NCBI GenBank assembly: GCA_016715895.1
Contig: JADJXH010000004.1
Location: forward strand, 356,712 to 420,711
Length of the DNA: 64,000 bases
From: Flavobacteriales bacterium
GTDB lineage: Bacteria; Bacteroidota; Bacteroidia; Flavobacteriales_F; PHOS-HE28
Reading direction: 5' to 3'
Position 1 is the stretch's first letter, and every line of letters begins with the position of its first letter. Position numbers and translations under genes: made by a program. This document shows positions 11,457 through 64,000 of this stretch, one piece after another. The notes under the pieces are model-generated. The model saw nothing but the letters and a program-made list of their open reading frames with translations, was not told the origin of the DNA and searched no databases.

Positions 11457-11598
11457 CGGCGGCGGGCCGGCCGGGAGAGGGACCGGACCGCAAAGGTACG
11501 CCGCCCCGTCCGGCCGCTTCCCGTTCCATCGCCTCCCCTACCCGTTCCAAGCAACTTCCGGGGCCCGGGGCCTGTCTACCCAGCGTAATTTCGACGAC

Positions 11599-20769: not shown

Positions 20770-20787
20770 GGGCGGAAGGAATTCGGG

Positions 20788-22854: not shown

Positions 22855-23003
22855 GCGGTTGGGGTCGATGGGTGACGGGATACCGAGCGCAAAGATGTCC
22901 TCTCCGCGTAAAGCGAAGGTGAACGGGGACGGGTGGTTATCAACATTCGCCCGCGGATGGCGGAAGGTGCCGGCTACCTTTGGCCGCACATGAAGCCCCT
23001 TCC

Positions 23004-27951: not shown

Positions 27952-28984
27952 TCAGGAACGGGCCTCCACCCAGGCCAGGGACAGCTCCGCGTCCAGGTCG
28001 CACCGACCGGCGGTGAGCCCCCCGGTGGCGCGCATGGCCAGTTCCAGCAGCCCGGCACCGGCGGGGTCCTCCCCCTGGAGGGCCGCGCGGTAGCGGCGTT
28101 TGAGGTGAAAGGCCGTATCCCGGCCGATCCCCTCCACGACCTCCTGCAGGTGACGGGCCTCTGAAGCCGGGCCCACCGCACCAGCCAGCATGCTCCAGCC
28201 GACGGGGGAACGGCGCTGGACGGCCAGCAGCACGGGCCCGCTGCGACGCGCGGCGCTGTCATCGAAATACTGGGTGGCGGCCAGCAGGCAGGCGTGCAGC
28301 GGTTCCCCGCCCACCCCCGACTCCTGCACCAGCCCCAGCAGCGCGTTCAACAGGGCCGGCGCGGGTTCTCCGAGCATGGCGGCCACTACGCGACACGCCT
28401 CCTGCGCGCGGCAGACCCCGGCCACGCGGTCGAACGGCAGGGGCTCCGCATCCCCGAGCAGCACCTGGAGCATGAAGCGGTGCATGCCGGCCTCGAGGGA
28501 TTCCAGCGCATGGCCCGGATCGCGGCCGCTGCGGCGCGCCATCTCGATGAGCCCCAGCCCGGCGCCGCCCTTGGCCGATGCGGCGTTGGCCTGCAGCCCG
28601 CGGAGGAAGAGCGCCTTCAACGTGTCGGCATCCTTGCCGAGCACACCGTTGAGCGCGCGGTGCAACGCGGGCAGGTCGGCGTCGGCCACCGGGTTGAAGG
28701 TGATCACCTGCTGGCCCTGCGGCACCACGCCGAACAGGAGACCGCTCCGGTGCTTGATGCCTTCGGTTTGGGGGCGGTGGCGGATGATGTTCTGGAAGGC
28801 CTCCACCAGCACGAAGGCCAGTCGCGCGCGGGCCCCTTTGGACAAGCCCTGCCGCTCGGCGATGGCCTCGGCCAGCTCGATCAGGGCGGGCGGTCTGCGC
28901 GTCGCGGAAGGGATCGCCGAGCAGGAGGGCGAAGGTGCCGCCGGACAAGGCCCGGTACAGGCTGAGCGCATGGGGGACCTCCAT
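27952..28984 (-). CDS. Putative regulatory ATP-binding protein (histidine-kinase-like ATPase, SiaB/DUF6272-like N-terminal domain + uncharacterised C-terminal domain); frameshifted near codon 30
   Basis: N-terminus MEVPHALSLYRALSGGTFALLLGDPFRDA in one frame continues as …PALIELAEAIAERQGLSKGARARLAFVLVEAFQNIIRH…GGAGLGLIEMARRSG… in another. Single-base indel around 28885-28905. Family assignment is tentative. Confidence 0.45.
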
Positions 28985-29050
28985 CGGCCGAAGCGTTCAA
29001 AGATAGCCGCGGCCCCGAACGGGCCCCGGCGCACCGATAACTTGCGCCCC

Positions 29051-41301: not shown

Positions 41302-41387
41302 GACGGTGCGAAGATCGACCGGGATGGCCCACGGTGGCGTTCCGCCCCATCGATCGCTGGTGCCGTAGTTTAGGCTCCCTGATCGCC

Positions 41388-42485
41388 ATGCGCCTCCATC
41401 TTCTTCTCCCCCTGTTCGTGCTGATCGGTGCACGCGGCGCTGCACAGCAGACCGTGGTGCGCGCCGATGGATCCCAGCTGCACGGCCAGGTGCAGCGGGT
41501 GGCGGCGGACCGGATCGACCTGCTCGTGACGAGCGGCCTGCGGAAGGGCCCCAGCTCGGTGCCGTGCAGCGAGGTGCTGTGCGTGGTGGACGGTGCGCTC
41601 ACGGTGCACACGCGTCCCTGTGGCGAGCCGCTCGCCTCGTTCGCCCAGGGCGGGGCGGCCTGCAATGCGCTGGTGCGCGTGGACCAGCAGGTGTTGAAGG
41701 GCACGATCGTGCGGTGGGACGACGACCGGCTGACGATCCGCACGGCGGCGGGTGACGTGAACGTGCCGCGCAGCGAGCTGGCCGGTGTGCTCTCGCCGGG
41801 GCTGGTGGAGTTCACCGCGCCGGCCGACCGGCTGAAGGGTCTGCTGGCCGATGCGGGGGTGGTGAGCGCGCTCAACGATGCCTCGCGCTGCCCGCCGGTG
41901 GCCGAGCCGCGCACGGTGCGGTACACCGAGAAGTGGATCGCACCGCGCTTCGAGCGCACGGTGAGCGAAAGCGGCAAGGCGGAGCTCGACTTCACCTACT
42001 TCAAGGACGTGGCGCTGGAGAAGACGCGCCGGCTGAGCGGGTACATCGCGCAGATCACGAACAAGGAGCTTTCGGCCATCGTGAAGGACAAGGCGGTGGA
42101 GCAGGCCATCGGCCTGTTCGAGCGGCCGGACAACCTGGTGCACGTGAGCAACGTGGCCTCCGGCGCCTCCAAGGCCCATCCGGTGCACAAGTACCTGAGC
42201 ACGCACCTGCGCTACCTGAAGTACGACGCGGTGACCATCGAATGGGCCGACATCCAGTACGTGAGCGACTTCGAGCTGCAGCCCGATGGCAGCTACACGG
42301 CCGTGGTCTCGCTGCAGCAGCGGTTCCAGGGCATGGTGGACGGCCAGGTGTACTACAGCGACATCACCAACAAGAACATCCAGATCAAGCTGCGCACGTA
42401 CGACAAGGTGGTGGAGGGCCGCACGGAGCGGTTGTGGGACGTGTTCCTGGGCGATATCGGGGTGGTGAGCACCATGGCCGAATGA
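41388..42485 (+). CDS. Hypothetical secreted protein
   Basis: Signal peptide MRLHLLLPLFVLIGARGAAQ. 365 aa, no recognised domain. First gene of a four-gene unit with overlapping stops/starts. Confidence 0.6.
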   Translation: MRLHLLLPLFVLIGARGAAQQTVVRADGSQLHGQVQRVAADRIDLLVTSGLRKGPSSVPCSEVLCVVDGALTVHTRPCGEPLASFAQGGAACNALVRVDQQVLKGTIVRWDDDRLTIRTAAGDVNVPRSELAGVLSPGLVEFTAPADRLKGLLADAGVVSALNDASRCPPVAEPRTVRYTEKWIAPRFERTVSESGKAELDFTYFKDVALEKTRRLSGYIAQITNKELSAIVKDKAVEQAIGLFERPDNLVHVSNVASGASKAHPVHKYLSTHLRYLKYDAVTIEWADIQYVSDFELQPDGSYTAVVSLQQRFQGMVDGQVYYSDITNKNIQIKLRTYDKVVEGRTERLWDVFLGDIGVVSTMAE

Positions 42486-49813: not shown

Positions 49814-49992
49814 GGCGTTCAGGTGTTGGGGTTTTCCGTGTCGTTGGTGGGTCAAAGCAAGCCCCGGAGGAGGGGGTGCGTGAGCCCGGCCGAGCAGGTG
49901 GCGGGGGACAGGGAGCAAGTGGCGGGAGTGAGCAGCGAAGGGCCTCACGCAGAGGCGCAGAGGACGCTGAGGAAGCACGAGCAGGGGCGAGA

Positions 49993-51369
49993 CTGTTCAG
50001 TAAAGTGTGTCAGGCCGGATTGCGAACTTCAACACCTGACCCATGGAGGACAAGACGGACAAGTTCGATTACGAAGCCTTCGAGAAGGAGGCCATGAAGC
50101 AATTGCTACTGGGCAAGCCCTTGAGCGGCAGCGATGGGGTGCTGACCCCGCTGGTGAAGCGACTGATGGAGGCCTCGCTACGGGGCGAGCTGAGCGCTCA
50201 CCTGGCCGAGGAGCCGCCTGGAGGTAACCGGCGCAACGGACATGGGCGCAAGCGGGTGAAGACCGCCCACGGAGAGGTGGAGATCGCCACGCCGCGCGAC
50301 CGTGAGGGAACCTTTGACCCGGTGCTGCTGCCCAAGCGCGAGCGCGTGCTGAACGCCGAGCTGGACATGAAGATCATCAAGCTCTACGGGCTTGGGATGA
50401 GCCAGCGCGACATAAGCGACCATGTGCGGGACCTGTACGGCATCGAGGTGAGCGAGGCCACGATCAGCGCGGTGACCGACCAGGTGATCGCCGACGTGCA
50501 GGCCTGGCGGCAGCGGCCCTTGGAGGCGCGCTACGCGATCGTGTGGCTCGATGCCATCCACTTCAAGGTGAAGCAGGAAGGGCGCGTGGTGAACAAGGCC
50601 GTATACACCGCCTTGGGCGTTGGCCCCGATGGCCACAAGGACCTGCTGGGCCTGTACGTGGGGCAGAGCGAAGGGGCCAAGTTCTGGCTGGGCGTGCTGG
50701 GCGACCTGCGCCAACGCGGCGTGGAGGACATGCTGATCGCATGCATCGACAACCTGAGCGGCTTCTCCGACGCGATCTCCTTGGTGTACCCACAGAGCGA
50801 TATCCAGCTCTGCATCGTGCACCAGGTGCGCAATACCCTGAAGTACGTCAGCTACAAGCACTACAAGGAGGTGGTCAAGGACATGCGGGCCATCTACCGG
50901 GCCCCTGGTGAGCAGCAAGCGCTGCATGCCCTGGAGGTCTTCAGCGACAAATGGGGGAACGCTACCCGCAGGCGGTGAGCTCCTGGCACACCAACTGGCC
51001 GCTGCTGGCCAGCCAGTACCGCTACAGCGAGCGCATCCGGCGGCTCATCTACACCACCAATCCCATCGAGGGCTTCCACGCTCAGCTGCGCAAGTACACC
51101 AAGACCAAGCGCGTCTTCGACAACGACATGGCCCTGCTCAAGCTGCTCTATCTGGCCCAGCAGCGCATCGTGGAGAAAATGGCCGCCAAGCCCATCTTCG
51201 CTTGGAGGGAGATAGCCGCCGAGCTACGCCTGCTCTTCGGCCCACGCTTCGATCCACAGGCGATCAACACCGATCAACAGGTTCTGAGTCTCCCCCGGAC
51301 CCCCTCGTTCAAAACCCAACAACATCAACATCATCAGCAATAACGATGATGACACACTTTATCTAACAG
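49993..51369 (+). mobile_element. IS256-family insertion sequence (about 1.38 kb) with imperfect terminal inverted repeats CTGTTCAGTAAAGTGTGTC / GACACACTTTATCTAACAG
   Basis: Terminal IRs read at 49993-50011 and 51351-51369. Internal transposase (50043..51343) has IS256/mutator-type motifs (…IVWLDAIHFKV…, …YTTNPIEGFHAQLRKYTK…). Transposase split by a 1-nt indel at the G5 run 50954-50958 (…FSDKWGNATRRR* versus …KWGERYPQAVSSW…). Confidence 0.85.
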
Positions 51370-51450
51370 ACCCGGAGTCAAGGATGACGCCCTCCAGCGC
51401 AGGGGCAACCCTATTCGCCGCTCGACGTCCAACCAGGGAGCACATCACCC

Positions 51451-53163
51451 ATGCGCCTGATCCACCTCCTACTTACCGTCCTTTCGCGCCTCTCGTGCTG
51501 TGCCTTGATCCCCATGCCAGACGCAGCGTTGCGCGCATGGGCGAACACCCAGTTCCCGGGGTGCATCGTGGGCACGTCCATCGACGAGACCCACCCCGGC
51601 GTACAGTCGGCCTACCAGGTGGACATCAGCTTCGTGGGCACGGTGACGGACCTGCGGGGAATGGAAGCCTTCCTGAACGCTGAGGAGATGATCGTGAGCA
51701 ACAACCCGATCGCCATTTGGATGGGCCCGCCGAACCTGTTGATGTTGGGTGCCGTGAACTGTGGTATCACGGGAACCTTCCACGTGCCGTACCATATTCA
51801 CACGCTGCAGATCTCCTTCAATGCCATCACCACCTTGGTCATACCTTCCGGGTCGAACCTGGGCGCACTGTATGCCCAGCACAACCAGATCAGCTCCATC
51901 GTGGGCAACTGGGATGCGACGTTCGTGGACGTGAGCCACAACCAGCTGACATCGCTATGGGGGATCGTGAACAGTTCGTGGTTGGTGACCCTCAACGCCA
52001 GCCACAACCTGCTCACGACCATGCCAGCGTTCAACTCCGGTCATATGAACGCCTTGGATCTGAGCTGGAATCAGATCACGGGAGTGGTGCCGGTGAACGG
52101 GAACAACGACCTGGATGTGGACCTGAGCCACAATGCGGTGGATGGTGTGAGCGGTACGGTGACCGCCCACAGCTTGAATTTGAGCCACAATCCACTAACG
52201 CAAGGGATCGCCCGGCTGAACAACCTGGTGCGAAGCTTGCGCGTGAGCGACACACAACTGCCCTGTCTGCCTCGATTGAACACTGGTCTGCAGACCTTGT
52301 ACTGTACCGGCAGCCCTATCAGCTGCCTGCCCAACCAGCCGACGGGGTTGAACACAAGCGTGGCCAACCTGGGATTCACCGCCGTGCTGTGTGGCAACAC
52401 CTCGCCATGCTTCCAGGCGCCCACGGCCGTGGACCTGCGGATGCTGTTGCAGGGGCCCTACGATCCGGTCACGCAATTCATGCGGACCGACCTGCGCACC
52501 CTGGGTGTGCTGCCCACCACCGACCCCTACCCGGGCCTGGGCATCACCTATGTGGGCAACGGCTGGCCGGGCGTCCAGGACCCCGCCGTGCTGAACGCCA
52601 CGGGGGTGGATGCGGTGGTGGACTGGGTGGTGGTGGAGCTGCGCTCCACCATTGCGCCATACCCGGTGGTGGCCTCGCGGCCCGCGCTGCTGCAGCGCGA
52701 TGGCGACGTGGTGGGCACCAACGGCTCGCTGACGGTGGGCTTCAACGCGCCGGCCGGCAACTACCGCGTGGCCGTGCTGCACCGCAACCACCTGGGGGTG
52801 ATGACCGGGAACGCCTACAGCATGGGCAGCACGCCCGCTGCGGTGGACCTGACGGTGAGCAGCACGGCCACCCACGGCACCAACGCACGGAACACCGTGG
52901 GCACGCGGACGGTGATGTGGCCTGGGGATGCCACGCGCGACGGCAGCGTGAAGTACATCGGTGCGGCCAACGACCGCGACGCGATCCTGGTGGCCGTGGG
53001 CGGGAGCACACCGAACACGGTACTTTCGGGCGTGTACGACAGCCGCGACGTGAACCTTGACGGGACAGTAAAGTACACGGGCAGCGCGAACGATCGGGAC
53101 ATCGTGCTGCAGACGATCGGCGGCAGCACCCCCACGGCGGTACGCACCGCACAGCTACCGTGA
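51451..53163 (+). CDS. Secreted leucine-rich-repeat protein with a roughly 250-aa conserved C-terminal module containing two dockerin-like Ca-binding repeats
   Basis: Signal-like MRLIHLLLTVLSRLSCC. LRR units (LDLSWNQITG, LSHNAVDG, LNLSHNPLTQ, LRVSDTQLPCLP…). C-terminal module VVDWVVVELR…ALLQRDGDVVG…HRNHLGVMT…SVKYIGAANDRDAIL…DVNLDGTVKYTGSANDRDIVL…TAQLP, shared with 55708..57888. Confidence 0.75.
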   Translation: MRLIHLLLTVLSRLSCCALIPMPDAALRAWANTQFPGCIVGTSIDETHPGVQSAYQVDISFVGTVTDLRGMEAFLNAEEMIVSNNPIAIWMGPPNLLMLGAVNCGITGTFHVPYHIHTLQISFNAITTLVIPSGSNLGALYAQHNQISSIVGNWDATFVDVSHNQLTSLWGIVNSSWLVTLNASHNLLTTMPAFNSGHMNALDLSWNQITGVVPVNGNNDLDVDLSHNAVDGVSGTVTAHSLNLSHNPLTQGIARLNNLVRSLRVSDTQLPCLPRLNTGLQTLYCTGSPISCLPNQPTGLNTSVANLGFTAVLCGNTSPCFQAPTAVDLRMLLQGPYDPVTQFMRTDLRTLGVLPTTDPYPGLGITYVGNGWPGVQDPAVLNATGVDAVVDWVVVELRSTIAPYPVVASRPALLQRDGDVVGTNGSLTVGFNAPAGNYRVAVLHRNHLGVMTGNAYSMGSTPAAVDLTVSSTATHGTNARNTVGTRTVMWPGDATRDGSVKYIGAANDRDAILVAVGGSTPNTVLSGVYDSRDVNLDGTVKYTGSANDRDIVLQTIGGSTPTAVRTAQLP

Positions 53164-53176
53164 GCGCACCGCGCGA

Positions 53177-53884
53177 TCACCGGTCCGCGGTGCCTCCGAT
53201 GCGCAGACGCGCCTTCAACGCATCGCGGTGCGTGCGGCCCACGGGCACGCGATGGGGCCCCACGAGCACATGCCCATCGTGCAGGGCGGACACGCGGTGG
53301 AGGTTGACCAGGTAGGAGCGGTGCACCCGCGCGAAGCCTGCTGTACCGAGCCGCTGCTGGATGTGGGCCAGCGTGGCCACGAGCACATGCCTGCGCTCGG
53401 CGGTGTGCAGGATCACATAGTTGTCGTCGGCCTCCGCGAAGAGCACTTCGCCGACGGGCAGCCGCACCAGGCGGCCCTTGTCGCGCACGAACAGATCGGC
53501 GGGACCCGTGGGCGCGGTGCGGGAGAGGGCCACGGCCAGCTGGGCGCGCAGGTCCTCCTCATCGAACGGTTTGCGGATGAAGCCTGCCGGGCGGGTCTCG
53601 CCCATGCGCGCGAGGGTGTCGGCATCGGTATGGGAGGTGACGTAGAGGAAGGGGATGCCGCGTTGCTGCAACCCCGCCGCCACCGCGAAGCCGTCCGGAC
53701 CATCGCCCAGGCGGATGTCGAGCAGGACCAGATCGGTCGTGATGGTGTGGAGCAGATGCAGGGCCTCCGCGGCATCGCGGGCCCGGCCGCTCACGGCATG
53801 CCCCAGGTCGACCAGCATCGTGGCCAGGTCCTCCGCGATGAAGGGCTCATCCTCCACGATCATCACCTGCAGCGGGCGCATCAT
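53177..53884 (-). CDS. LytTR-family response regulator
   Basis: Receiver MMRPLQVMIVEDEPFIAEDL…VLLDIRLGDGPDGF… and LytTR DNA-binding domain (…RVHRSYLVNLHRV…). Confidence 0.9.
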   Translation of the reverse strand: MMRPLQVMIVEDEPFIAEDLATMLVDLGHAVSGRARDAAEALHLLHTITTDLVLLDIRLGDGPDGFAVAAGLQQRGIPFLYVTSHTDADTLARMGETRPAGFIRKPFDEEDLRAQLAVALSRTAPTGPADLFVRDKGRLVRLPVGEVLFAEADDNYVILHTAERRHVLVATLAHIQQRLGTAGFARVHRSYLVNLHRVSALHDGHVLVGPHRVPVGRTHRDALKARLRIGGTADR

Positions 53885-55707
53885 GGGGCGTGGGGCGGGG
53901 TGTGAAGACGGAGTTGCACGGTGGTGCCGGGACCGGTGCGCACCAGTTGCTCGGCCTTCAGCTTCTCGGCGAAGGTGCGCACGAGCACCAGACCGGAGCC
54001 GTCAACGATCCCGGGAAGGGGCTCGGACAGGCCCACGCCATCGTCGGCGACGGTGAGGAGCAGACCATCGCGCTGGTGGTGCAGGCTCACCTCGATGCGG
54101 CCCTTGCGCCCGTCGGGGAAGGCATGCTTGAGGGCGTTGGTGATGAGCTCGTTGATGACGAGCCCGAGCGGGATGGCCGTATCCACATCGAGCCAGAGGG
54201 GTGCCACATCGAGGTGGATGGTCACGTGATCCTCGTCCACGGCATGGCTTCGCCGCAGGCCTTGCGCGAGGCGTTCCACGTAGGGCGCCATCTCGATGCC
54301 CTGCACCCCGTCGTGCTGGTAGAGGTCCTGGTGGATGAGGCTCATGCTGCGGATGCGGTCGAGGCCGTCGCGCACGGGCGCTCGCGCGGCGGGATCCCGT
54401 ATGGCGCGAAGCTGCGCGCGCAGCAGGCCGCTCACGATCTGCAGGTTGTTCTTCACGCGGTGGTGGATCTCTCGCAACAGGAGGCCCTTGGCCTGAAGGG
54501 CATCCTCCAGCGCGTGGGTGCGGTCGGCCAGGGCGTTGCGGTGGCGGCGTTCGCGTCGCAGCACGAAGGCCAGGGCGAAGGCGATGGCGGCCAGAAGGAG
54601 CACCGCCGCACCCACAAGGACGAGCTGCGTGCGCTGGCGGGCGATGACGGCGGCGCGGTGCTCAAGCTCGGCCTTGGAGAGCGCGTCGCTCGCGCGGCGT
54701 TCAAGGGCGAGGATGGCGGCGGCGTCGGAGCGCGCGTCCAGGGTGTCGTTCCACTGGATGAAGCGGCGCAGCTGGGCCAGTGCGCTGTCCGGTCGGCCGA
54801 GGGCCACCTCCAGGTCGCTCAGGGCCTCGTGCACCAGTGTGCGTTCCAGCACGAAGCCCCCGTCCACGGCCAGGCGCAGGGCACGGCGCAGGAGGCTGTC
54901 CGCGTCGGCGGGCTGGTCGTGCGCGAGCGACCAGCGGCCCGAACGCAGGAGGAGCCGGATGAGGACCAGGGGTGCGGGGACACCGACGGATGCGCTGTCA
55001 ACGGCGCGGAACCGGTCGACAGCCTCCGTGGTGCGGCCCGAGCGGAAGAGGGCACCGGCCTCGTCGAGCAGGATCTCGTGCGCATGGCGGGCCATGCCGT
55101 GGCGTTCGAGGGCCTCGGCCGACCGCCGGTAGTGCAGCGCGGCGCTGTCGTGCCGCCCCAGCACCTGGAGCACCTGGGCCAGTTCACGCTCCACTCCGGC
55201 GGCCCATTCGTGCTCGCCGGCCTGTTCGAGGTCGGCCAGCGCACGCGCATACGCCGTGCGGGCCTCGTTCCAATGGCGGGCATCGGCCAGGATGCTGGCG
55301 ATGTTGGCCTGCACCATGCCGGATCCCCCGAGGAGGCCCTCGGCGCGATAGGTGGCCAGTGACCGTTGAAAGTGCGGCAGGGCGCTCAGGCCATCGCCGC
55401 GCACATAGAGCGCCTGGCCCAGCATGGCCTGCGCCTGTGCGCGCTGATGTGCGGTACCGCCGGCATCGGCCAGTACGGCGAAGGCTTCGGCATGCATCGA
55501 GGCCCGGGCGGGCCTGCGGAAGACCTCGGCATGGAACAACGCGCGCAGCACCGGCAGTCGCGAGGTGTCCTGCGGCAGCCCGGCCAGCACGCGCTCCAGG
55601 CTGTCCACCTGGGCGGGAAGGGACAGGGCGCCGAGCAATGCCCACGGCAGGACGATGGCGCGCCACCCGGGGAGGGCGGCCACCATCGACCCGGGCATGC
55701 GGCGCAT
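53881..55707 (-). CDS. Sensor histidine kinase with N-terminal TPR-like sensor, one TM, HisKA_2 (HHRVKNNLQ) and HATPase_c; partner of the LytTR regulator
   Basis: TM LVLVGAAVLLLAAIAFALAFVL. H-box LLREIHHRVKNNLQIVSGLL. ATPase …INELITNALKHAF…DDGVGL… ATGA overlap with the regulator. Start could instead be the internal ATG at 55686. Confidence 0.85.
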   Translation of the reverse strand: MRRMPGSMVAALPGWRAIVLPWALLGALSLPAQVDSLERVLAGLPQDTSRLPVLRALFHAEVFRRPARASMHAEAFAVLADAGGTAHQRAQAQAMLGQALYVRGDGLSALPHFQRSLATYRAEGLLGGSGMVQANIASILADARHWNEARTAYARALADLEQAGEHEWAAGVERELAQVLQVLGRHDSAALHYRRSAEALERHGMARHAHEILLDEAGALFRSGRTTEAVDRFRAVDSASVGVPAPLVLIRLLLRSGRWSLAHDQPADADSLLRRALRLAVDGGFVLERTLVHEALSDLEVALGRPDSALAQLRRFIQWNDTLDARSDAAAILALERRASDALSKAELEHRAAVIARQRTQLVLVGAAVLLLAAIAFALAFVLRRERRHRNALADRTHALEDALQAKGLLLREIHHRVKNNLQIVSGLLRAQLRAIRDPAARAPVRDGLDRIRSMSLIHQDLYQHDGVQGIEMAPYVERLAQGLRRSHAVDEDHVTIHLDVAPLWLDVDTAIPLGLVINELITNALKHAFPDGRKGRIEVSLHHQRDGLLLTVADDGVGLSEPLPGIVDGSGLVLVRTFAEKLKAEQLVRTGPGTTVQLRLHTPPHAP

Positions 55708-57888
55708 TCAGGGCAGCTGTTCGGTGCGGGTGCCGGTGGGCAGCGGCGGTCCGATGGTCATCAGGATCGGATCCCGGTCGTTGGCGCTGCCGGTGTACTT
55801 CACCACGCCGTCCATGTTCGCATCCTCAGGCCAGTAGCCCGCGACGGTGGCGGTGGGGATGATCCCGCCGATCCGCACGAGGATGGCATCACGGTCATTG
55901 GCCGCGCCGGTGTACTTCACCGTGTTGTCGAAGCGGGTGTTGTTGGGCCAAAGCACCTGGGTGCCGTTCACATCCCTGCGGGCATCGGTGCCGAAGACGA
56001 GCGTGCCGGGCAGGGTGAGGTCGATGGTGAGCGGGGTGCTACCCAGGCTCACGGGCGCGGCGGTCATCACGCCCAGGTGATTGCGGTGGCGGAGCGCCAC
56101 ATGGTAGTCGCCCGGGAAGCGACAGAAGCCGACAGGCGCCACGCCGTCCACGCCCACCACATCGCCATCGCGCTGCAACAGGGCCGCCCTGCGGGCCAGC
56201 ACCTGGGTGGGGTCCACGGGATCGCGCAGTTCCACCAGCACCCAGTCCACGATGGCGCTGGATAGCGTCCAGCCCAGGACCAGAGGAGTGGTCACGGCGG
56301 GCTGTTCCAGGGTGAAGCCCATGGCCGTATACGGCTCCTCCAGGGGGATGAGCCCGGCCGTTCGGAGCTGATCGGACATGGCCAGGAAGTCGGCCGGTGT
56401 GTGCACGGCGCCCAGGATGGCCTTGAGGCGGACGAAGACGCCGGCGCAATCGGGTTTCTCGAACTGGACGGTGAAGGCCTCGGTGGAACCGGCCGACACG
56501 AGGAGCAGGGTGTTGGCCCCGGGGTCCGCGTCGAAGGTGCCGAGGAAGGCGCCGGTGACGTGGATGCGGCCATCGGCACCGACGGCCACTCCGCGGCCCA
56601 CGTCGTTCTGGGCACCACCCAGGTTGAAGCCTTGCAGAAAGGTGCCGGCGGCCGAGTAGCTGGCCACGAACACATCGGCGGCCCCGTTGGAGGCGATGGT
56701 GGAAACGCCCGCACCGGGGTCCAGGTCGAGCGGGTTGCCCGTGGTATTGCCGAAGGTGCCGGTGACGTGCGCGGCTCCCTGGGCGTCCACGTCGACATCG
56801 AAGCCCTCGTTGAGGAAGCTCTTGAGCATGAAGGCCCAGGCGAAGGTGCCATCGCTGTTCAGCTTGGCCACGAAGGCGGGCTCGCTGAAGTCACCGGCCA
56901 GGGGGAAGCTTCCGGGCCCCGGATCGAAGTCGGTGCTGCTGCTGATGCGACCGGTGATCACCGGTCCACCATCGGGTCCGACGTCCAGGGCCTGGGCGCG
57001 TTCGCTGCTGGTGCCGCTGAAGCTCGCGGCCCAGAGGACCGCTCCTCCGGAGGAGACCTTCATCACGAACGCGTCCTCAATGCCCGCGCTGGTGCGCGAC
57101 AGCACGGCCGCCCCGGGATCGAAGTCGACGGTGTTGCGGAACTCGCCGCACAGCAGCACATCGTCCAGCGCATCGGCGGCCACCCCGAAGGCCTGGTCGT
57201 TGCCGGTGCCGCCCACCGCGAAGCCCCACACGAACTGGCCGGCCGGGTCGAGCTTGAGCACGAAGGCGTCCTGCTGGCCGTTGCCGCCGGCGGTGGCCAC
57301 GCCGGGCCCGGGATCCAGATCACCGGCGGCGCCCAGCACACCGCAGACCAGCACACGGCCGCTGGCGTCCACGCTGATGTCGTTGCCGACATCGGTGCCA
57401 TTGCCTCCGATGAGGTGGCCCCACAGGTAGGTGCCCTGCGCATCGAGCTTCACCACGAACACATCGAAGGAGGTGTTGGCGCTGGTCCGCAGGTCCACGC
57501 CGGGGCCGGGGTCCAGGTCCACCGTTCCACTGGCACGGCCGGTGAGGTACACTTCGCCCCCTGTGTTGGTGGCCACACCGAAGGCCCAGTCCGCTCCGCC
57601 CGCACCGATGGAGCCCCCCCAGAGGAAGCCGCCCGCACTGTCCAGGGCTTGCACGAACACGTCGTTGCTGCCGTTGCTGGTGACGTTGAAGGTACCGGGA
57701 CCGGGATCGAGGTCCACCGTCAGGGTGAAGGTGCCCACGGTGATCACCATGCCGTTCAGGCCGATGGCTACATCATAGGCGAAGTCGGCCTGGGTGGATC
57801 CGAGAGCATGGGCCCACGTCGGGGCCTGAGCGAGGGTGTGGGCGGTGGACCCGAGGGCCGTCGCAAAGAGGAGGTGGCGCAACTGCAT
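55708..57888 (-). CDS. Secreted beta-propeller (SBBP/YVTN-like repeat) protein with the same dockerin-like C-terminal module as the LRR protein
   Basis: Signal peptide MQLRHLLFATALGSTAHTLAQA at the ATG at 57888. About 9 repeats of …G..D.D.G.GV(A/T)… C-terminal IVDWVLVELR…ALLQRDGDVVG…HRNHLGVMT…TVKYTGAANDRDAIL…DANMDGVVKYTGSANDRDPIL…TEQLP. Confidence 0.75.
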   Translation of the reverse strand: MQLRHLLFATALGSTAHTLAQAPTWAHALGSTQADFAYDVAIGLNGMVITVGTFTLTVDLDPGPGTFNVTSNGSNDVFVQALDSAGGFLWGGSIGAGGADWAFGVATNTGGEVYLTGRASGTVDLDPGPGVDLRTSANTSFDVFVVKLDAQGTYLWGHLIGGNGTDVGNDISVDASGRVLVCGVLGAAGDLDPGPGVATAGGNGQQDAFVLKLDPAGQFVWGFAVGGTGNDQAFGVAADALDDVLLCGEFRNTVDFDPGAAVLSRTSAGIEDAFVMKVSSGGAVLWAASFSGTSSERAQALDVGPDGGPVITGRISSSTDFDPGPGSFPLAGDFSEPAFVAKLNSDGTFAWAFMLKSFLNEGFDVDVDAQGAAHVTGTFGNTTGNPLDLDPGAGVSTIASNGAADVFVASYSAAGTFLQGFNLGGAQNDVGRGVAVGADGRIHVTGAFLGTFDADPGANTLLLVSAGSTEAFTVQFEKPDCAGVFVRLKAILGAVHTPADFLAMSDQLRTAGLIPLEEPYTAMGFTLEQPAVTTPLVLGWTLSSAIVDWVLVELRDPVDPTQVLARRAALLQRDGDVVGVDGVAPVGFCRFPGDYHVALRHRNHLGVMTAAPVSLGSTPLTIDLTLPGTLVFGTDARRDVNGTQVLWPNNTRFDNTVKYTGAANDRDAILVRIGGIIPTATVAGYWPEDANMDGVVKYTGSANDRDPILMTIGPPLPTGTRTEQLP

Positions 57889-58086: not shown

Positions 58087-61000
58087 TCACTGCAGCATGA
58101 CGCGCAGCACGCTCCTCGCCCCGTGCGCTCGCTCCACGACCAGGGTGTAGCAGCCGCGTTGCAGCCCGCCCAGGCCGTCGATGCGGGGCGCCGGTGACCA
58201 TCCACGAACCATGCGACCCGCGGGATCGAAGAGCGCAATGCGTGCTTCGCCGGTCGCTCCCTCCACACGCACGTGGTCCGTGGCCGGGTTCGGGTAGGGC
58301 ACGAGACCCCCGGGCAGGGTCGCACCCGCCACCGGCACCACGGCCGTCCACACATGCCGTCCGTCCAGGTCCACCTGCTTCAGCTTGTAGTAGCTCGTAC
58401 GGTCCGCCTCGTTCGCGTCCACATGCCCGTAGTCCGTGCGCTGCTGGCTGTCGCCGGCGCCATCCACCCAGCCCACCTCGGTGAAGTCGTCCTCGCCTTC
58501 GATCATGCGCCACACCTCGAAGCCCGCATTGTTGTGCTCGGTGGCGGTGGACCAGTCCAGCCGCACCTCGCGATCGTTGATGCGTTCGCCGGTGAAGGAG
58601 AGCAGTTCGACCGGAAGGGGTGCCCCCATGATGGTGATGTACAGCTCGCCGTCCGCGCCGAGCAGGGCGGTGTAGCCATGGGTGCCACCGGTGGCCTGTA
58701 TGCGCGGCTCCAGCGCAGGGGATGCCGGGAAGGTGGGCATCCACACGTTGCCGGCCGGGTTGTTCAGCAGCGCACAGTCCTCCATGGGCCCGGCGTAGTG
58801 GGCCACGCCGGCATCGGCGTACACGTTCACCACCGGGTCGGCGGCCGCATAGGTGCCGAACTCCGCTCCGCTGTGGAAGAGCCGGACGATGGCGGTGCCG
58901 GACATGGGCAGGCTGGTGGTGAAGTGCCAGTTGCGGTCCAGGTAGTGCTGTCCGATGAGGCTCTGGCGCACCGGACCGCTGTTGAGGAACACGCCGAACT
59001 GCACGATCCCCAGGGGCTGCCCGTTGTCGTTGAAGCGCGCCACCACCATGCGATCCTTGTAGATCCATTGGTCGGTGCCCGTGCCGGTGCTCGTGATGGG
59101 ATCCGCGGGCACACAGAGATCATAGGTGGCCGACCACAGTTGCGGTTGGAACTCATCCGCCCCGATATCCGGCGCAGTGGTGCTGCGCGCCTCTCCATCC
59201 ATGTCCGTGGGGTAGAGGGCGAAGGGCAGTCCGCCGCCATCGGCGTCCATGCTGTAGCAGTGCAGGTCGCTGGCGGGATCGAAATAGCACGACTCGCCGG
59301 CGAAGCTGTTGGCGAACATGCCGCTCACGGACTGCAGCGCAGTGAGGGTGGTGACGGTGGCGCCGTTCCAGGTGGCCAGGGTGCTGGCCGATCTGCGCAG
59401 CAGGTTGTGGCGCACGTCGCTGAACGCGGTCCCGGAGGGGGCATCCAGCGGATGGCTGAAGCGGCTCGCCAGGATGTTGTTCACCAGCCAGAGGTCCGAC
59501 GAACCAGCGGCGGCGCTCGCGAACAACGCACGACCGGAGTACGCGCTCACGGAGTTGTGCACGATCCGAACGTGGTTGTTCAGGCCGAGGATGCGCAGGG
59601 TGTGCCCGGCGAACAGGTCCGAAATGAGGGTATTGTTCGTGACCCATGACGGCGCGCCCACGGTGGCGGCCACCGTGAGCTCCAAAGCGCTCCCTCGGGT
59701 CAGCACCCGGTTGTCATCGATGGTAGCACCGCAGCCACAGGTCACCTTGATCGCCGGGAACAGGGCGCTGCCGAGCATGGTGACCTTGTTCCTTGAGATG
59801 GTGACGGACGAAGCCTGGAACACGGTGATGCCGCCTTGCACGTTCTCGATCACATTGTCCGTGATGGTCCATTCATCGCCCGCATTGCCCGGGTTCCCGA
59901 ACGCATAGACCCCACCGTTGAAGTAGTTCCCCTCGAAGACCGTACCCACTTCGTTGAGGGCCGGCGAATTGGCCGCGCTCACCATGACGCTGTTGAAGCC
60001 GATCGCACCCGTACGCAGGAACCGGCAGCCGGTGAAGCGGATGTGCTCGGAGGGGTCGTTGGGCGTGCCAACACCGGAACGGAAGCGGAAGATCGTTCCA
60101 TAGGTCGCCACACCGTACCGCTCCAGGGTGATGCGCTCGAAGGCCACGTGATCGGCGCCCTCCATGCGCACCACGTGATCGATGGGCGTCGAGGTGGTCG
60201 TGGCGGGATAGCGCAGGGTGACCGCCGTGCTGTCCGACACATTGCCGCGGAAGGTCACCGTGTTGGTGGAGGACGATCCGGTGATGGCCGGCAGGCTGAT
60301 GGCCTCGGTGTACACCCCGTCCTCCACCAGGAAGAGGACCGGCCCGGCGATGCCGCAGATGCCCAGCTTCAGCACGGCCGCGCTGAACGTGGGGAAGTCC
60401 GCTCCGAGGGACGGGCCGATGGTGTAGGTCCCGTTGAGGGTGAAGCAGTACTCGTCCGTTTCATCCGCTCCGATATCCGGGTCGCTCAGCGCAGGGCGCG
60501 GTCGCAGCTCCGCATCCCGATCATCAGCCACGCCCGCCGCGAGCGTCCCCGTACCACCACAGGGGGACGTGCTTTGGATGTGGAGGTCGGTGAGCGGGTC
60601 CACATAGACCGGGTCCATGAAAAGGCTGTTGGCATCAAGGCCGGTGGCCGCTGTAAGAGAGGTCTGGTTCGAGTGGATCCCGGACCAGTTGACGGAGGCG
60701 CCGGACACCGTGTGGTAGCAGTTGTGGTCGGAGGCGATCACGGTGGCCGTGGCGCCCACGGTGAGCGCGTAGCCCAGGTCGCGGTACCAGCTGTTGTTCA
60801 GCATCCGGATGGCCGTGTTCCCATTGGAGATGTTGCCTGCACCTGACACGCTGTTGTGCAACAGATCCACCCGGTCACAGAACACCAGGCTCACGGTGCT
60901 GCTGCTCCCGATCACCATGTTGTTGGCCACCCGGATGGGCAGGGCAGGCGTCCCGGCGAGCTGCTGCAAGGCCAGGGTGGTGTAGAGCCCAACTGAGCGC

Positions 61001-61791
61001 AGCGTGTTCCGGCTGATGTCCACATCCCCGCTCAGGCTCAGGGCGGTCACACAACTCGCTGCCTGGGTGTGGAAGGAGGTGTTGCCCAGCAGGTGCACCT
61101 GTCCGGAGATCCCCTGGAACCACATGCGCGCCTCGTGGAGATCGCAGCCCTCCACGGTCACTTCATCGGCCTCGCCCGTAGTGGCCCACCAATAGAGACC
61201 ATGGTTGCCATGTTCGATGCGATCGGCCTCGAAGCGGATGGCGGCCTGCACAGCGTTGCTCGCGCTGTGGATCACGTTCCGGTCCTGCACGGCGGCGGTG
61301 AAATTGGTGGGGCCGCGCAGCTTGCAGTGCCGAACGGTGAGGTGTGCCGTGGTGCCGTCGATCACCAGCACGTGCGCATACTGGTTGGTCCCGGTGCGTT
61401 GCAGGGTCATGTGCTCCAGCGTGATGTACTGGGCACCGTCCAGGCGCAACAGGCTGTTGTGGCCCTGCCAGGGGATGGAGGTGTAGCTGGCCTCGGTCCA
61501 GGTCACCAACGAGCTGTCGAGGCTTTGCCCGCGGAAGGTCACCGTGTTCACGGCGGACACACCGGCCACCGCCCCGATGGTCGCACGACCGGAGTAGGAT
61601 CCGTCGGTCACCTCGAACAGCACCGGGCCGTTCACACCAAGCGCGTTCAGGTCGTCGATGGCCGCGCTGAACGTGGTGTAGTCGCCCCCACCGCCGCCAT
61701 CGATCACATAGGTGCCGTTGAGCTGGGCGGATGCCGAGGGCGCAAGGATCATTGACCCTGCGACGACCAGGGAGCGGAACGGACGGGCCAT
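58087..61791 (-). CDS. Very large secreted right-handed parallel beta-helix (pectate-lyase-fold) repeat protein with T9SS type A CTD
   Basis: Signal peptide MARPFRSLVVAGSMILAPSASAQ. Many NxxI/V…beta-helix rungs (…NNMVIGSS…, …NNILASRF…, …TDNVIENVQGGITVF…). C-terminus LVPYPNPATDHVRVEGATGEARIALFDPAGRMV…YTLVVERAHGARSVLRVMLQ. Confidence 0.8.
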   Translation of the reverse strand: MARPFRSLVVAGSMILAPSASAQLNGTYVIDGGGGGDYTTFSAAIDDLNALGVNGPVLFEVTDGSYSGRATIGAVAGVSAVNTVTFRGQSLDSSLVTWTEASYTSIPWQGHNSLLRLDGAQYITLEHMTLQRTGTNQYAHVLVIDGTTAHLTVRHCKLRGPTNFTAAVQDRNVIHSASNAVQAAIRFEADRIEHGNHGLYWWATTGEADEVTVEGCDLHEARMWFQGISGQVHLLGNTSFHTQAASCVTALSLSGDVDISRNTLRSVGLYTTLALQQLAGTPALPIRVANNMVIGSSSTVSLVFCDRVDLLHNSVSGAGNISNGNTAIRMLNNSWYRDLGYALTVGATATVIASDHNCYHTVSGASVNWSGIHSNQTSLTAATGLDANSLFMDPVYVDPLTDLHIQSTSPCGGTGTLAAGVADDRDAELRPRPALSDPDIGADETDEYCFTLNGTYTIGPSLGADFPTFSAAVLKLGICGIAGPVLFLVEDGVYTEAISLPAITGSSSTNTVTFRGNVSDSTAVTLRYPATTTSTPIDHVVRMEGADHVAFERITLERYGVATYGTIFRFRSGVGTPNDPSEHIRFTGCRFLRTGAIGFNSVMVSAANSPALNEVGTVFEGNYFNGGVYAFGNPGNAGDEWTITDNVIENVQGGITVFQASSVTISRNKVTMLGSALFPAIKVTCGCGATIDDNRVLTRGSALELTVAATVGAPSWVTNNTLISDLFAGHTLRILGLNNHVRIVHNSVSAYSGRALFASAAAGSSDLWLVNNILASRFSHPLDAPSGTAFSDVRHNLLRRSASTLATWNGATVTTLTALQSVSGMFANSFAGESCYFDPASDLHCYSMDADGGGLPFALYPTDMDGEARSTTAPDIGADEFQPQLWSATYDLCVPADPITSTGTGTDQWIYKDRMVVARFNDNGQPLGIVQFGVFLNSGPVRQSLIGQHYLDRNWHFTTSLPMSGTAIVRLFHSGAEFGTYAAADPVVNVYADAGVAHYAGPMEDCALLNNPAGNVWMPTFPASPALEPRIQATGGTHGYTALLGADGELYITIMGAPLPVELLSFTGERINDREVRLDWSTATEHNNAGFEVWRMIEGEDDFTEVGWVDGAGDSQQRTDYGHVDANEADRTSYYKLKQVDLDGRHVWTAVVPVAGATLPGGLVPYPNPATDHVRVEGATGEARIALFDPAGRMVRGWSPAPRIDGLGGLQRGCYTLVVERAHGARSVLRVMLQ

Positions 61792-61894
61792 GGGTCGGAA
61801 CGATGGACCTTGCAAGGTCCCCGAAGCCGACGCCCGTGGTCCAGCACGATCGGGTGAACGGCCCTCAGGATCGGGTGAACGTCCGAACCCATGC

Positions 61895-63679
61895 TCAGCC
61901 GGTACGCTTGTAATTGCGCACGACGATCCGCACCGTGGTGCCCCGTGCCCCGCTGATGGTGTGCTCCGCCTTGAGCTTGTTGGCGAACGTGCGGATCATG
62001 CCCAGTCCGAAGCCTGTGCCACCAGCCGAGACCGCCTCCGGGTCGGCGATGCCCACGCCATCGTCGGCCACCTCCACCACCAGCGCGCCTGCGGCTTCCT
62101 CCACAGCGATGGCAAGCGTGCCCGTTCGAGCATCGGGCCAGGCGTACTTGAGCGCGTTGGTGACGAGCTCGTTCAGGATGAGCCCGACCGGCACGGCCGT
62201 GTCCACGTCCAGGTTGACCGGCGCCACCCGCAGGTCGGCGGCAACACGATCGGTCATGCCGTAGCTGGTGATCAGGCCATGGACGAGCTTCTCCACGTAC
62301 GCAGGCATCGCCACCCCGGTGAGGTCGCCCTCACGATACAGGTCCTGGTGGATGAGCGCCATGCTCTTCACGCGCAGGCGGCTGTCGTTCACCGCCTCCT
62401 TCGCCTTGGTGTCGGTGATGCCGCGACCCTGGATGCTCAGCAGGCTGCTGACCGTCTGGAGGTTGTTCTTCACGCGGTGATGGATCTCGCGCAGCAGCAG
62501 TTCCTTCTCCTTCAACTGCGCCTCGATCACCTTCTTCTGGGCCATCACCTCCCGCTCGCCATTCCGCTTGAGGCGATAGGCACGGTAGGCGAAGAGCGCC
62601 ACCCCGAGCAGCAGCAGGGCTCCTGCGGCAATGGCTTTGATGGCAAGGGAGCGGCGTTCGAGCTGGGCCACGCTCTCGGCGATGAGGGCATCCTTCCTCC
62701 CGCTCTCGTACTTCTCCTGCATCTCGGCGACCTGCGCGCTGCGCTCCAGGCCGAGGATGGTGTCGCGCAGGGCAACGGAACGCCGGAGGTGGCGAAGCGC
62801 CGAGTCGGGCATTCCGCGCTGCTCGAACCACTCGCTGAGGAACTCATGGGCGTTGGCCTGCACATCGCCGGCCTGCACTGTGGTGGCCAGCGCCAGGCCT
62901 TCGCGCATGCGCAACAGTGCACTGTCCGGATCGCCGGCCTTGCCGTGCAAACGCCCGAGATCGGCCAGCATGTTGGCCCGCGTGTTCTCATCCTCGCCCA
63001 CGGGCATGATGGCCATGGCGCTTCGCAGGATGCCCAGTGCCTCCTCGCTTCGGCCCAATTCGTCCAGGGCATTGGCCAGGTTCATCCGTGTGGTGGCGGC
63101 ATAGCGGTCGAACCCCAAGGCGGTCAGGATCGTGTCCGCCTGCCGGTAGTACGCCACCGATCGGTCGAATCCCCTCTGTTCGTAGAGGATGTTCCCCATG
63201 TTGTTGGACACGTTCGCCATCCACACGGAATCCGGGATGCTCCGGAACCCCTTCAAGGCCATCTCATACTCGGCGGCCGCTTTGTCCAAGCGGTGCAACT
63301 TCTCGTGCACGGTGCCGATGTTGTTGTGGGCCATGGCGGTGTACCAGGGGTCGCCTCCGCGTTCGAAATGGGGCAGTGCGGCCAGGTAGTGCTGCAGCGC
63401 ATTGTCATGGTCGCTGCGGTTCGTGTAGCACATCCCCGTATAGTTGTGCCCCTTCCCGATCTCCAGGTCGATCCCGCTCTGCCCGGCGAGGGCCCTGTAC
63501 TCCCGGGCAAAAACCAGCGCGCTGTCCGGATCGTTGAACACCGTCGCACGCAGCAGCTCGGTCAGCACGGGTAGGCGCGATGTGTCCGCTGGCAGGCCCT
63601 CACGGATCCGGAGCAGGCTATCCAGCTGGCCCTGGGCCGCACCCGCAATGAGCATCAGGATGATCGCCACCGCTCGCAT
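61895..63679 (-). CDS. Sensor histidine kinase (TPR sensor + TM + HisKA_2 + HATPase_c), paralog of 53881..55707
   Basis: Signal MRAVAIILMLIAGAAQGQ. TPR-like repeats. TM ALLLLGVALFAY. H-box LLLREIHHRVKNNLQTVSSLL. ATPase …LNELVTNALKYAW…DDGVGI…GFGLGM…. Confidence 0.85.
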   Translation of the reverse strand: MRAVAIILMLIAGAAQGQLDSLLRIREGLPADTSRLPVLTELLRATVFNDPDSALVFAREYRALAGQSGIDLEIGKGHNYTGMCYTNRSDHDNALQHYLAALPHFERGGDPWYTAMAHNNIGTVHEKLHRLDKAAAEYEMALKGFRSIPDSVWMANVSNNMGNILYEQRGFDRSVAYYRQADTILTALGFDRYAATTRMNLANALDELGRSEEALGILRSAMAIMPVGEDENTRANMLADLGRLHGKAGDPDSALLRMREGLALATTVQAGDVQANAHEFLSEWFEQRGMPDSALRHLRRSVALRDTILGLERSAQVAEMQEKYESGRKDALIAESVAQLERRSLAIKAIAAGALLLLGVALFAYRAYRLKRNGEREVMAQKKVIEAQLKEKELLLREIHHRVKNNLQTVSSLLSIQGRGITDTKAKEAVNDSRLRVKSMALIHQDLYREGDLTGVAMPAYVEKLVHGLITSYGMTDRVAADLRVAPVNLDVDTAVPVGLILNELVTNALKYAWPDARTGTLAIAVEEAAGALVVEVADDGVGIADPEAVSAGGTGFGLGMIRTFANKLKAEHTISGARGTTVRIVVRNYKRTG

Positions 63680-63717
63680 GGCCGCAAGATGAGGGATACC
63701 GTTCGATCCGACCACCC

Positions 63718-64000
63718 TCACAGCACCTTCGCCCACTTCATCCGCTCCGCCCGGAAGCTCCGTCCCCCGGGCAGCCACTGCCCCCTGACCTGCGGTCCAT
63801 CGTCACTGATGGCCAGCACGAGGCCCAGGTTCACGGCATGGCCGCGATGGACCCGCTCCAGGGGATCCTGTGGCAGCTCCACGAGCACATCCTTCCGCAT
63901 ACGCGGTACCGTGAACCGTTGTTGGGCCCTGTGCACCTGGGTGCTGTGGTCTTCGGCCTCCCCATGGAGGATGTCGCTCACGGTCGGTCGCACATGCCGG
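63718..64000 (-). CDS. LytTR-family response regulator, C-terminal part (gene start lies beyond window end)
   Basis: …RVHRGHAVNLGLVLAI… resembles the LytTR motif of 53177..53884 (RVHRSYLVNLHRV). Positioned immediately upstream of the kinase, as in the other pair. Confidence 0.6.
   Translation of the reverse strand, partial: RHVRPTVSDILHGEAEDHSTQVHRAQQRFTVPRMRKDVLVELPQDPLERVHRGHAVNLGLVLAISDDGPQVRGQWLPGGRSFRAERMKWAKVL

Follow-up and report, generated by a model that had tools for sequence, protein, structure and literature searches.

A leucine-rich repeat (LRR) protein and a beta-propeller protein encoded in a 64-kb stretch of a Flavobacteriales contig (the whole stretch is referred to below as the window) end in the same C-terminal tail, and this tail is very probably a module of the dockerin superfamily resembling the X-module–dockerin (X-Doc) dyads of scaffoldins. 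The contig is from a member of the Bacteroidota and has a GC content of ~66–70%; the two proteins are encoded within a group of four genes at positions 51451–57888. With its N-terminal arm, its X-module-like beta-sandwich and its divergent dockerin, the tail is the Bacteroidota counterpart of the X-Doc dyad of clostridial scaffoldins, and it diverges so far from other members of the dockerin superfamily that current hidden Markov models (HMMs) do not see it. We also consider it reasonably probable that the tail works by binding cohesins. The evidence for the shared module and for its fold is given first, followed by its relationship to dockerins, its candidate partners and the alternative explanations.

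Two proteins of the window share a C-terminal module

When the LRR protein (570 amino acids; 51451–53163, + strand) was compared with the SBBP-like beta-propeller protein (726 amino acids; 55708–57888, − strand) by BLASTP, a single significant alignment was obtained, between residues 327–570 of the former and 486–726 of the latter. Identical residues occupy 124 of the 245 aligned positions (E = 3e-59). Thus, the shared C-terminal module of roughly 250 residues described in the initial annotation of the window is real and about 245 residues long, with an identity of 51% and not of 55% as given there. The tail was found in exactly two copies when the 64 kb were searched by tblastn, the copy of the propeller protein comprising about residues 485–726 (55711–56436, − strand). 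The copies are only 67% identical at the DNA level, and are therefore old paralogues; a recent duplication of the tail was rejected on the same ground. The motifs that had been quoted for the two tails are all present and coincide with the conserved positions of the family as a whole: VDWV[VL]VELR, ALLQRDGDVVG, HRNHLGVMT, two occurrences of D-x-N-x-DG-x-VKYTG-x-x-NDRD-x-IL and a terminal QLP.

In the LRR protein, a hydrophobic, signal-like N-terminus is followed by LRRs of ~20 residues and then by the tail. Its repeats score above the cut-off of Pfam LRR_1 (24 bits) and resemble the LRR regions of SspH2 and SlrP; an orthologue of identical architecture (48% identity) is present in a related genome locus, L041. 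The longest open reading frame (ORF) of the propeller gene extends to a TTG at 58011. We placed its start at the ATG at 57888, which gives the 726-residue product with a signal-peptide-like N-terminus and agrees with the start of the orthologue in another locus, L075. The propeller region consists of repeated DxDPGxG blades, with a weak SBBP match and a Lepto_SBBP_lipo match (E = 3.2e-13) which is below the cut-off of that model.

The LRR-coding part is lower in GC than the tail (59.7% versus 69.6%), as had been noticed initially and regarded as consistent with domain shuffling onto a conserved tail. The difference itself is confirmed; the argument drawn from it is not supported. The deficit is mostly at codon positions 1 and 2 (0.52 and 0.45, respectively), and GC at the third position (GC3) is 0.82, most genes called in the window having values of 0.75–0.94. 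The low GC is mainly due to an amino acid composition rich in L, N, T, S and I, and gives no evidence of recent shuffling; a foreign origin of the LRR part on GC grounds was rejected. The diversity of passenger domains across the family (see below) is much better evidence for a mobile module than GC.

The predicted structure of the tail resembles X-module–dockerin dyads

The tail was modelled with AlphaFold (AF2) from an alignment of 50 sequences (A1), of which the tail of the propeller protein is one. The model has a predicted local distance difference test (pLDDT) score of 92.2 and a predicted template modelling (pTM) score of 0.90. It contains an extended arm (residues 1–68), a beta-sandwich (residues ~70–170), two loop-helix repeats (174–196 and 214–236) and a final strand leading to the terminal Q-L-P. 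The loop-helix repeats anticipated in the initial annotation are thus present in the model.

On the + strand of the window, the arm of the LRR protein (tail residues 1–68) is encoded at 52408–52611; its conserved motifs in alignment A1 are LEGPY...M-D-LR..GL-P..EPY..LG and its pLDDT is mostly 76–97. The X-module-like beta-sandwich (residues 69–170; 52612–52917) holds VDWVVVELR, ALLQRDGDVV and HRNHLGVMT. The dockerin-fold subdomain (residues 171–251; 52918–53160) comprises the two loop-helix repeats, at about 52927–52995 and 53047–53115, and the last strand; the protein ends with ...R-x-x-Q-L-P. The corresponding dockerin-fold part of the propeller copy lies at about 55711–55953 (− strand).

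In an independent search with Foldseek, the top seven matches of the tail model were X-Doc chains. As a whole, the tail is structurally nearest to the X-module plus dockerin dyads of scaffoldins, and its last 86 residues are nearest to dockerins and to almost nothing else. The two loop-helix repeats are packed as a small helical domain, as in the dockerin fold, and an Ig-like X-module stands directly N-terminal to this domain and is packed on it, as in X-Doc dyads.

Homology to dockerins through a sister subfamily

The profile of alignment A1 was searched against 1.84 billion representative sequences. Among the proteins of the resulting family, P0128 (a subtilase-like protein of 1083 amino acids) carries three tandem, divergent copies of the module, each ending with ...VP[NT]; therefore, Q/x-[LV]-P marks a structural domain end and not only a protein terminus. 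A search with one of the P0128 copies led to a sister subfamily whose members are from Ignavibacteriota and other Bacteroidota, among them the cultured Pinibacter aurantiacus. In members of this subfamily the equivalent last segment is recognized by Pfam Dockerin_1 (P0333, 32.7 bits; P0355, 26.2 bits; P0365, 25.2 bits; cut-off 22.9). The profile of the window family aligns with P0333 over the whole module (hhalign probability 99.9%, E = 2.7e-33). In this alignment the canonical loop of P0333, GDANQDGSINATDL, is matched to W-x-G-D-x-x-x-D-G-x-V-K-Y-x-G-x-x-N-D-R-D-x-I-L of the window family, which corresponds to the P0333 loop with four additional residues ahead of the helix.

Conservation within the loops was calculated from 260 sequences. 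In loop 2, it is 1.00 for D, 0.88 for N, 0.98 for D/N and 0.97 for G; D1, N3, D5 and G6 are kept, the insertion displaces the acidic residue of position 12, and the invariant N-D-R-D occupies positions 15–18. Both repeats have an invariant Y, G and N-D-R-D. A calcium-binding geometry of the tail is plausible.

No domain model matches the tail

The HMM comparisons that had been suggested, with Dockerin_1 and the sorting domains of the type IX secretion system (T9SS), showed that no defined family matches the tail. Whole proteins and both tails were searched with Pfam and NCBIfam at E ≤ 10, and no model matched the tail. The T9SS sorting domains of type A (TIGR04183/PF18962) and type B (TIGR04131/PF13585, CHU_C) were among those giving no match to the tails, whereas they do recognize the cargo genes of the window that served as positive controls: CHU_C (type B) at 11404–15462 and Por_Secre_tail (type A) at 18781–20772 and 20791–23205. 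The proposal that the tail is distinct from both types of T9SS C-terminal domain (CTD) is hence upheld, and the evidence favours a docking module of the dockerin type over a sorting domain.

Size of the family, position of the module and passengers

The family comprises at least 13 215 clusters (at 50% identity), the number detected by the A1 profile at E ≤ 1e-3; 4293 were retained at E ≤ 1e-30. A genome scan with one genome per species gave at least 577 loci. The best 80 of these loci (L001–L080) come from about 49 assemblies, all of them metagenome-assembled genomes (MAGs) of uncultured Flavobacteriales/Bacteroidota from activated sludge, lakes and similar habitats. Several copies of the module occur per assembly, and 22 of the 80 loci contain 2–4 copies within 12 kb.

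The position of the module is nearly invariant: it ends at most three residues from the C-terminus in 260 out of 262 proteins, and 254 of the 262 have a Q-[LVIFM]-P ending. The passengers preceding it vary in length from 0 to about 3000 residues. They include propellers (DUF5122, WD40, Kelch and SBBP), MAM, PKD, fn3, CARDB, Laminin_G, DUF7619 and GBD_T9SS_assoc domains, as well as peptidases (M36, S8 and reprolysin). The idea of modular display put forward initially fits this distribution, as the tail is found on many unrelated N-terminal scaffolds. Carriers have Sec signals, and a lipobox-like motif was found in only 1 of 225.

Two passenger types are unannotated. Many short module proteins (P0008, P0031, P0053, P0060, P0081, P0103, P0104, P0107 and P0114) carry tandem repeats at the N-terminus, whose core is G-G-N-G-R-G-D and which match nothing in Pfam; P0006, P0017, P0019, P0048, P0075 and others have in common an N-domain of ~60 residues with the motif GGSVSWSVGEPVIG.

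Candidate cohesin partners

A search for cohesin-like partners, another of the suggested checks, found cohesin-bearing candidates in the same lineage and none in the window. Pfam cohesins are present in 2 out of 61 full-length close relatives of the window proteins. Three proteins of 844–853 amino acids (P0124, P0240 and P0385) combine two to three cohesins with a window-type tail, in the order signal peptide, cohesin, Ig-like domain, weaker cohesin-like domain, Big_2, cohesin, Cys-rich linker and tail. The Pfam Cohesin scores in P0124 and P0240 are 55–60 bits (cut-off 24.1), and the P0240 cluster includes MBK9276254.1, which is from a Flavobacteriales MAG. An X-Doc-like module at the C-terminus of a cohesin-bearing, scaffoldin-like protein is thus seen in these three proteins; most carriers of the tail are not scaffoldins. 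P0227 consists of a signal peptide, a cohesin and the tail, and in the sister subfamily proteins of ~380 residues made up of a signal peptide, a cohesin and the module are common.

In the metagenome contig L085, a scaffoldin-like gene is located directly downstream of a gene for an 1818-residue protein with beta-helix repeats, a canonical dockerin (Dockerin_1, 25.7 bits), a Cohesin match (28.6 bits) and a C-terminal T9SS type A-like domain. The same gene pair is found in L086, which derives from a different metagenome; its two proteins are 45% and 39% identical to those of L085. The sorting domain scores 26 bits with TIGR04183 in L086 (…VYPNPAIDGFTV…; cut-off 23) and 17.5 bits, below the cut-off, in L085. 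Contig L085 comes from run SRR11674021 and has a GC content of 0.66, equal to that of the window; the same run also holds a contig 99.9% identical to the window, which encodes exactly its regulator protein (see below). Exact-protein searches with the kinase and a TonB-type receptor of the window gave no match, and its LRR and regulator genes were found on short Logan contigs only. A homologue search with the cohesin plus sorting-domain end of the L085 protein found nothing. A metagenome scan with the scaffoldin N-terminus yielded only two true orthologues, L086 and L087; in the remaining 45 loci the match was to the Cys-rich linker motif only.

This linker, which precedes the tail in P0124, P0240 and P0385 (about residues 565–595), has the pattern GC-x-N-x-x-ACNYD-x-x-A-x-CDDG-x-CAF. 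The motif is also found, with no connection to cohesins, in dozens of contigs from marine metagenomes (L088–L132), and related proteins have a weak Cu-binding_MopE match.

A model of docking and the observations to be set against it

The basis in hand for a docking function consists of the fold, the homology to Dockerin_1-positive proteins, the C-terminal position, the diversity of passengers, the architectures of the cohesin proteins and the conserved gene pair. From this basis we infer calcium and cohesin binding by the variant dockerin, the choice of cohesin, the surface location and the crossing of the outer membrane by carriers. Most probably, the tail would plug its carrier, in a calcium-dependent manner, into cohesin domains of a small number of partners whose genes lie elsewhere in the genome. 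With its two to three cohesins, a scaffoldin-like protein could gather several carriers, and its own tail could attach it to a further cohesin. In known T9SS organisms, it is the sortase PorU that attaches type A cargo to the surface. A cohesin protein with a type A sorting domain would likewise be exported by the T9SS and would fix the assembly at the cell surface; such a protein would take the role that scaffoldins anchored by S-layer homology (SLH) repeats or by sortase have in clostridia. In this arrangement the LRR and the propeller would be two among many exchangeable heads with binding or enzyme functions, and in this locus presumably units that bind ligands.

Several observations weigh against the assignment or against its functional extension. 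Direct sequence tests of the window-type tail were negative: Dockerin_1 matched none of 31 window-type dockerin segments scanned singly at E ≤ 10, the profile of 50 tails found no match among the PDB sequences, and hhalign gave the alignment of a window-type tail to the 1OHZ dockerin a probability of 7%. The link between the window-type tail and dockerins is therefore drawn from the structure and the sister subfamily only. The dockerin/EF-hand calcium loop signature claimed initially holds only approximately: the loop-helix repeat is duplicated, but the loops are non-canonical, each being extended by the four inserted residues, and loop 1 is in addition degenerate at position 3, where conservation is lost in the 260 sequences. 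Consequently, calcium and cohesin binding may be altered or lost. Some members of the family consist of a signal peptide and the module with no passenger, and P0128 has its tandem internal copies, so the module can exceed the role of a tag. No cohesin was found in the window or in L001–L084, either with a local cohesin HMM or by tblastn with the scaffoldin N-termini, and what links L085 to the window is co-occurrence within one sequencing run. Finally, tail carriers have no recognized outer-membrane export signal that would bring them to a surface cohesin. It follows from this gap that either the module is also recognized by an export machine or carriers travel with the sorting-domain protein.

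The first of these possibilities, taken further, would make the module itself an export or sorting signal, that is, a third and long class of T9SS CTD or the signal of another outer-membrane route, its dockerin fold reflecting ancestry. We regard this as unlikely, although several features of the family are those expected of a sorting signal. The position at the C-terminus is strict, with the conserved Q-[LVIFM]-P ending; the proteins have Sec signals and, apart from the one lipobox-like motif, no other export signal; the lineage has a T9SS; the passengers are typical of T9SS cargo (DUF7619, GBD_T9SS_assoc, CARDB, M36 peptidase, PKD and SBBP), and these passenger types are also carried by proteins with ordinary T9SS sorting domains, both in the window and beside module genes. 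However, there is no HMM similarity to the type A and type B sorting domains, and at 250 residues the module is three times as long as the known ones. Moreover, it is internal in P0128 (three tandem copies) and precedes another domain in P0004, it is accompanied by no conserved PorP/SprF-like neighbour, of the kind found with type B genes, in the 85 sources analysed (see below), and cohesin genes are linked to the family.

It is likewise improbable that the module acts as a lectin or hemagglutinin does, adhering or anchoring in a calcium-dependent manner to a ligand that is not a protein, for example a glycan of the cell surface or of the environment. One member has been named ‘hemagglutinin protein’ by NCBI, but this is a putative annotation. 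The stand-alone proteins (signal peptide plus module) and the tandem arrays behave as adhesive or binding domains do. Cohesins are also far rarer than modules; however, dockerins greatly outnumber cohesins in cellulosome producers too, and such an excess is normal there. The best structural matches are, by a wide margin, cohesin-binding X-Doc dyads and dockerins, and cohesins are both fused to the same module and encoded in a conserved neighbouring gene, all of which argues against this explanation.

Returning to cohesin binding as the function of the tail, a more far-reaching version can be formulated, in which a Gram-negative, non-cellulolytic ‘cellulosome’ would exist in uncultured Flavobacteriales and, built with a more canonical dockerin, also in Ignavibacteriota and other Bacteroidota, with hundreds to thousands of secreted plug proteins, multi-cohesin scaffoldins and piggyback export through the T9SS. 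Piggyback export is proposed because plug carriers have no export signal of their own: they would bind the cohesin plus sorting-domain protein in the periplasm, cross via the T9SS as its passengers and stay tethered to it. We put this version forward as a speculative one, with a low probability of being correct in its entirety.

The two-component system and the neighbourhood of the module genes

The two tail proteins bracket a LytTR two-component system, as had been stated initially. It consists of a sensor histidine kinase (608 amino acids; 53881–55707, − strand; Pfam HisKA_2, E = 7.2e-24, TPR_12 and HATPase_c) and a REC plus LytTR response regulator (235 amino acids; 53177–53884, − strand; Response_reg, E = 1.4e-17; LytTR, E = 6.1e-17). 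The kinase has an N-terminal hydrophobic segment, a TPR region, a transmembrane segment, HisKA_2 and HATPase_c, in this order. The regulator gene is convergent with the LRR gene, and the two genes of the system overlap by 4 nt, at the start of the regulator and the stop of the kinase. The propeller, kinase and regulator genes follow one another on the same strand without intergenic space, the first junction being of 0 nt and the second an overlap. This order is kept in L075, from one other species-level genome, at 45, 35 and 46% identity, respectively. Since the three-gene unit is conserved in L075, a functional link between the propeller protein of the window and its kinase is plausible.

The initial annotation went further and proposed that the two-component system regulates the display proteins. 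This was not borne out: the kinase is absent from 79 of the 80 related genome loci (L001–L080), and the orthologue of the LRR gene in L041 has unrelated neighbours, with no such kinase or regulator. That the tail proteins of the window and the TPR-kinase/LytTR pair form one cassette, in which the two-component system regulates the display proteins or receives their signals, is thus very unlikely; the contiguity of the three genes, their conservation in L075, the fact that no other genes are found beside module genes as often as two-component genes and the presence of another LytTR pair near a module gene in L083 speak in its favour, and against it stand the absence of the kinase from those 79 loci, the unrelated neighbours in L041, the convergent LRR gene beside an insertion sequence (IS) at which another contig, L082, has a different junction, and the three TPR sensor kinases of the window, with which chance adjacency is often to be expected. 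For these reasons the two-component system is not a property of the module; the kinase and the LytTR regulator are linked in an operon-like manner to the propeller gene alone and are no general part of a system.

The neighbours of module genes were compared by clustering 556 called genes from 85 sources (84 related loci and the window). No conserved neighbour, either a cohesin or a PorP-like gene, was found in these sources. The commonest neighbours, as raw counts, were the Reg_prop kinase family (11 of 85 sources), sigma-54 regulators (9 of 85) and REC-GerE proteins (5 of 85). In L083 (CP064979.1, 1731967–1753103), which belongs to a complete Flavobacteriales genome of 4.48 Mb, a module gene lies within a cluster of T9SS type A cargo genes and is followed by a Reg_prop/His_kinase and REC-LytTR pair. 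Ppx/GppA phosphatase genes are located near module genes in five related loci; this synteny is probably coincidental.

The three TPR sensor kinases are encoded within 64 kb at 39112–41448, 53881–55707 and 61898–63781, all on the − strand. Two are of the HisKA_2 type and one is of the His_kinase/LytTR-partner type, and the family seems to be strongly expanded in this genome. The gene immediately next to the propeller gene on its upstream side, at 58087–61815 (− strand), encodes a beta-helix protein of 1242 amino acids whose C-terminus is formed by a T9SS type A-like sorting domain (…PYPNPATDHV…; TIGR04183, 16.8 bits, below the cut-off of 23). It resembles the beta-helix part of the anchor-type proteins of L085 and L086 by domain type and has neither a cohesin nor a dockerin. 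Elsewhere in the window, the longest ORF at 28190–30898 (+ strand) fuses an HD-domain region to the N-terminal and middle domains of polyphosphate kinase.

The presence of an IS256-family element immediately upstream of the LRR gene, also predicted initially, was verified. The element extends from 49988 to 51374 (+ strand) and its transposase matches Pfam Transposase_mut (E = 1.2e-84 and 6.2e-10) in two overlapping frames, 50043–50978 and 50951–51343; the split represents either a frameshift or a pseudogene. The terminal inverted repeats (49988–50012 and 51350–51374) are 25 nt long and 80% complementary, and the right end is 76 nt before the LRR start codon. From position 51373 onward, the sequence of the Logan contig L082 (run SRR11674018) agrees fully with that of the window; its junction lies at the right end of the IS (51373/4), and its first 328 nt (L082:1–328) have no match anywhere in the window. 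As L082 departs from the window exactly at the IS end, the population holds a different junction there, which reflects either an insertion polymorphism or an IS-mediated rearrangement.

Comparison with known systems

To our knowledge, detailed accounts of cohesin–dockerin assembly are confined to cellulosome producers among Gram-positive bacteria and to a few toxin complexes. Cohesin- and dockerin-like modules have been noted elsewhere without being explained. Our analysis points to a probable cohesin–dockerin assembly in a Gram-negative T9SS-bearing lineage, with a structurally modified dockerin. The literature searched, largely outside subscription journals, contained no description of the module or of a T9SS-linked cohesin–dockerin system. 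The dockerin-type module, which domain databases do not recognize, is represented by more than 13 000 clusters at 50% identity; it is found at the C-terminus of very diverse secreted proteins in bacteria that abound in activated sludge and lakes, and it is accompanied by scaffoldin-like and T9SS-linked cohesin proteins. If it does bind cohesins, it would define how the surface proteome is organized in these bacteria, provide a domain annotation for thousands of ‘hypothetical’ proteins and offer a new orthogonal cohesin–dockerin pair for protein engineering. It also raises the question, for T9SS biology, of how proteins with no sorting domain arrive at the surface.

Dockerin-bearing proteins have already been reported in rumen Bacteroidetes (Prevotella and Bacteroides); these dockerins are canonical and were ascribed to lateral transfer from Firmicutes, and the report describes no X-Doc-like module, scaffoldin or T9SS link (PMC6487960). 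The NagH dockerin and NagJ cohesin of Clostridium perfringens (2ozn) belong to a non-cellulosomal, Gram-positive toxin complex, in which a canonical dockerin is combined with a FIVAR module, whereas the tail has a sandwich and an arm. Compared with type I dockerins (PF00404), the last 86 residues of the tail have the same fold and the same duplicated D-x-N-x-D-G loop plus helix, but the loop is of 16–18 residues instead of 12, it includes the invariant Y-x-G-x-x-N-D-R-D, and the dockerin part never occurs without the arm and the sandwich. Like the type A and type B sorting domains of the T9SS, the tail is located at the extreme C-terminus of diverse secreted Bacteroidota proteins, with overlapping passengers; unlike them, it is three times longer and has no similarity to them by HMM or fold, and in this lineage the sorting domain sits on the cohesin-bearing partner candidate and not on the tail.

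The nearest counterpart is the clostridial X-Doc dyad (CipA of C. thermocellum and ScaA of A. cellulolyticus), which binds the type II cohesins of anchoring proteins and has no detectable sequence similarity to the tail. The tail differs from it by an additional conserved arm of 65 residues and by the 4-residue insertion in both calcium loops. It is found on thousands of ordinary passenger proteins and not on scaffoldins alone, and most of these passengers are not carbohydrate-active enzymes. Its host is a Gram-negative, T9SS-bearing Flavobacteriales lineage, and the putative anchor of the system is a T9SS sorting domain in place of the SLH repeats or sortase of clostridia.

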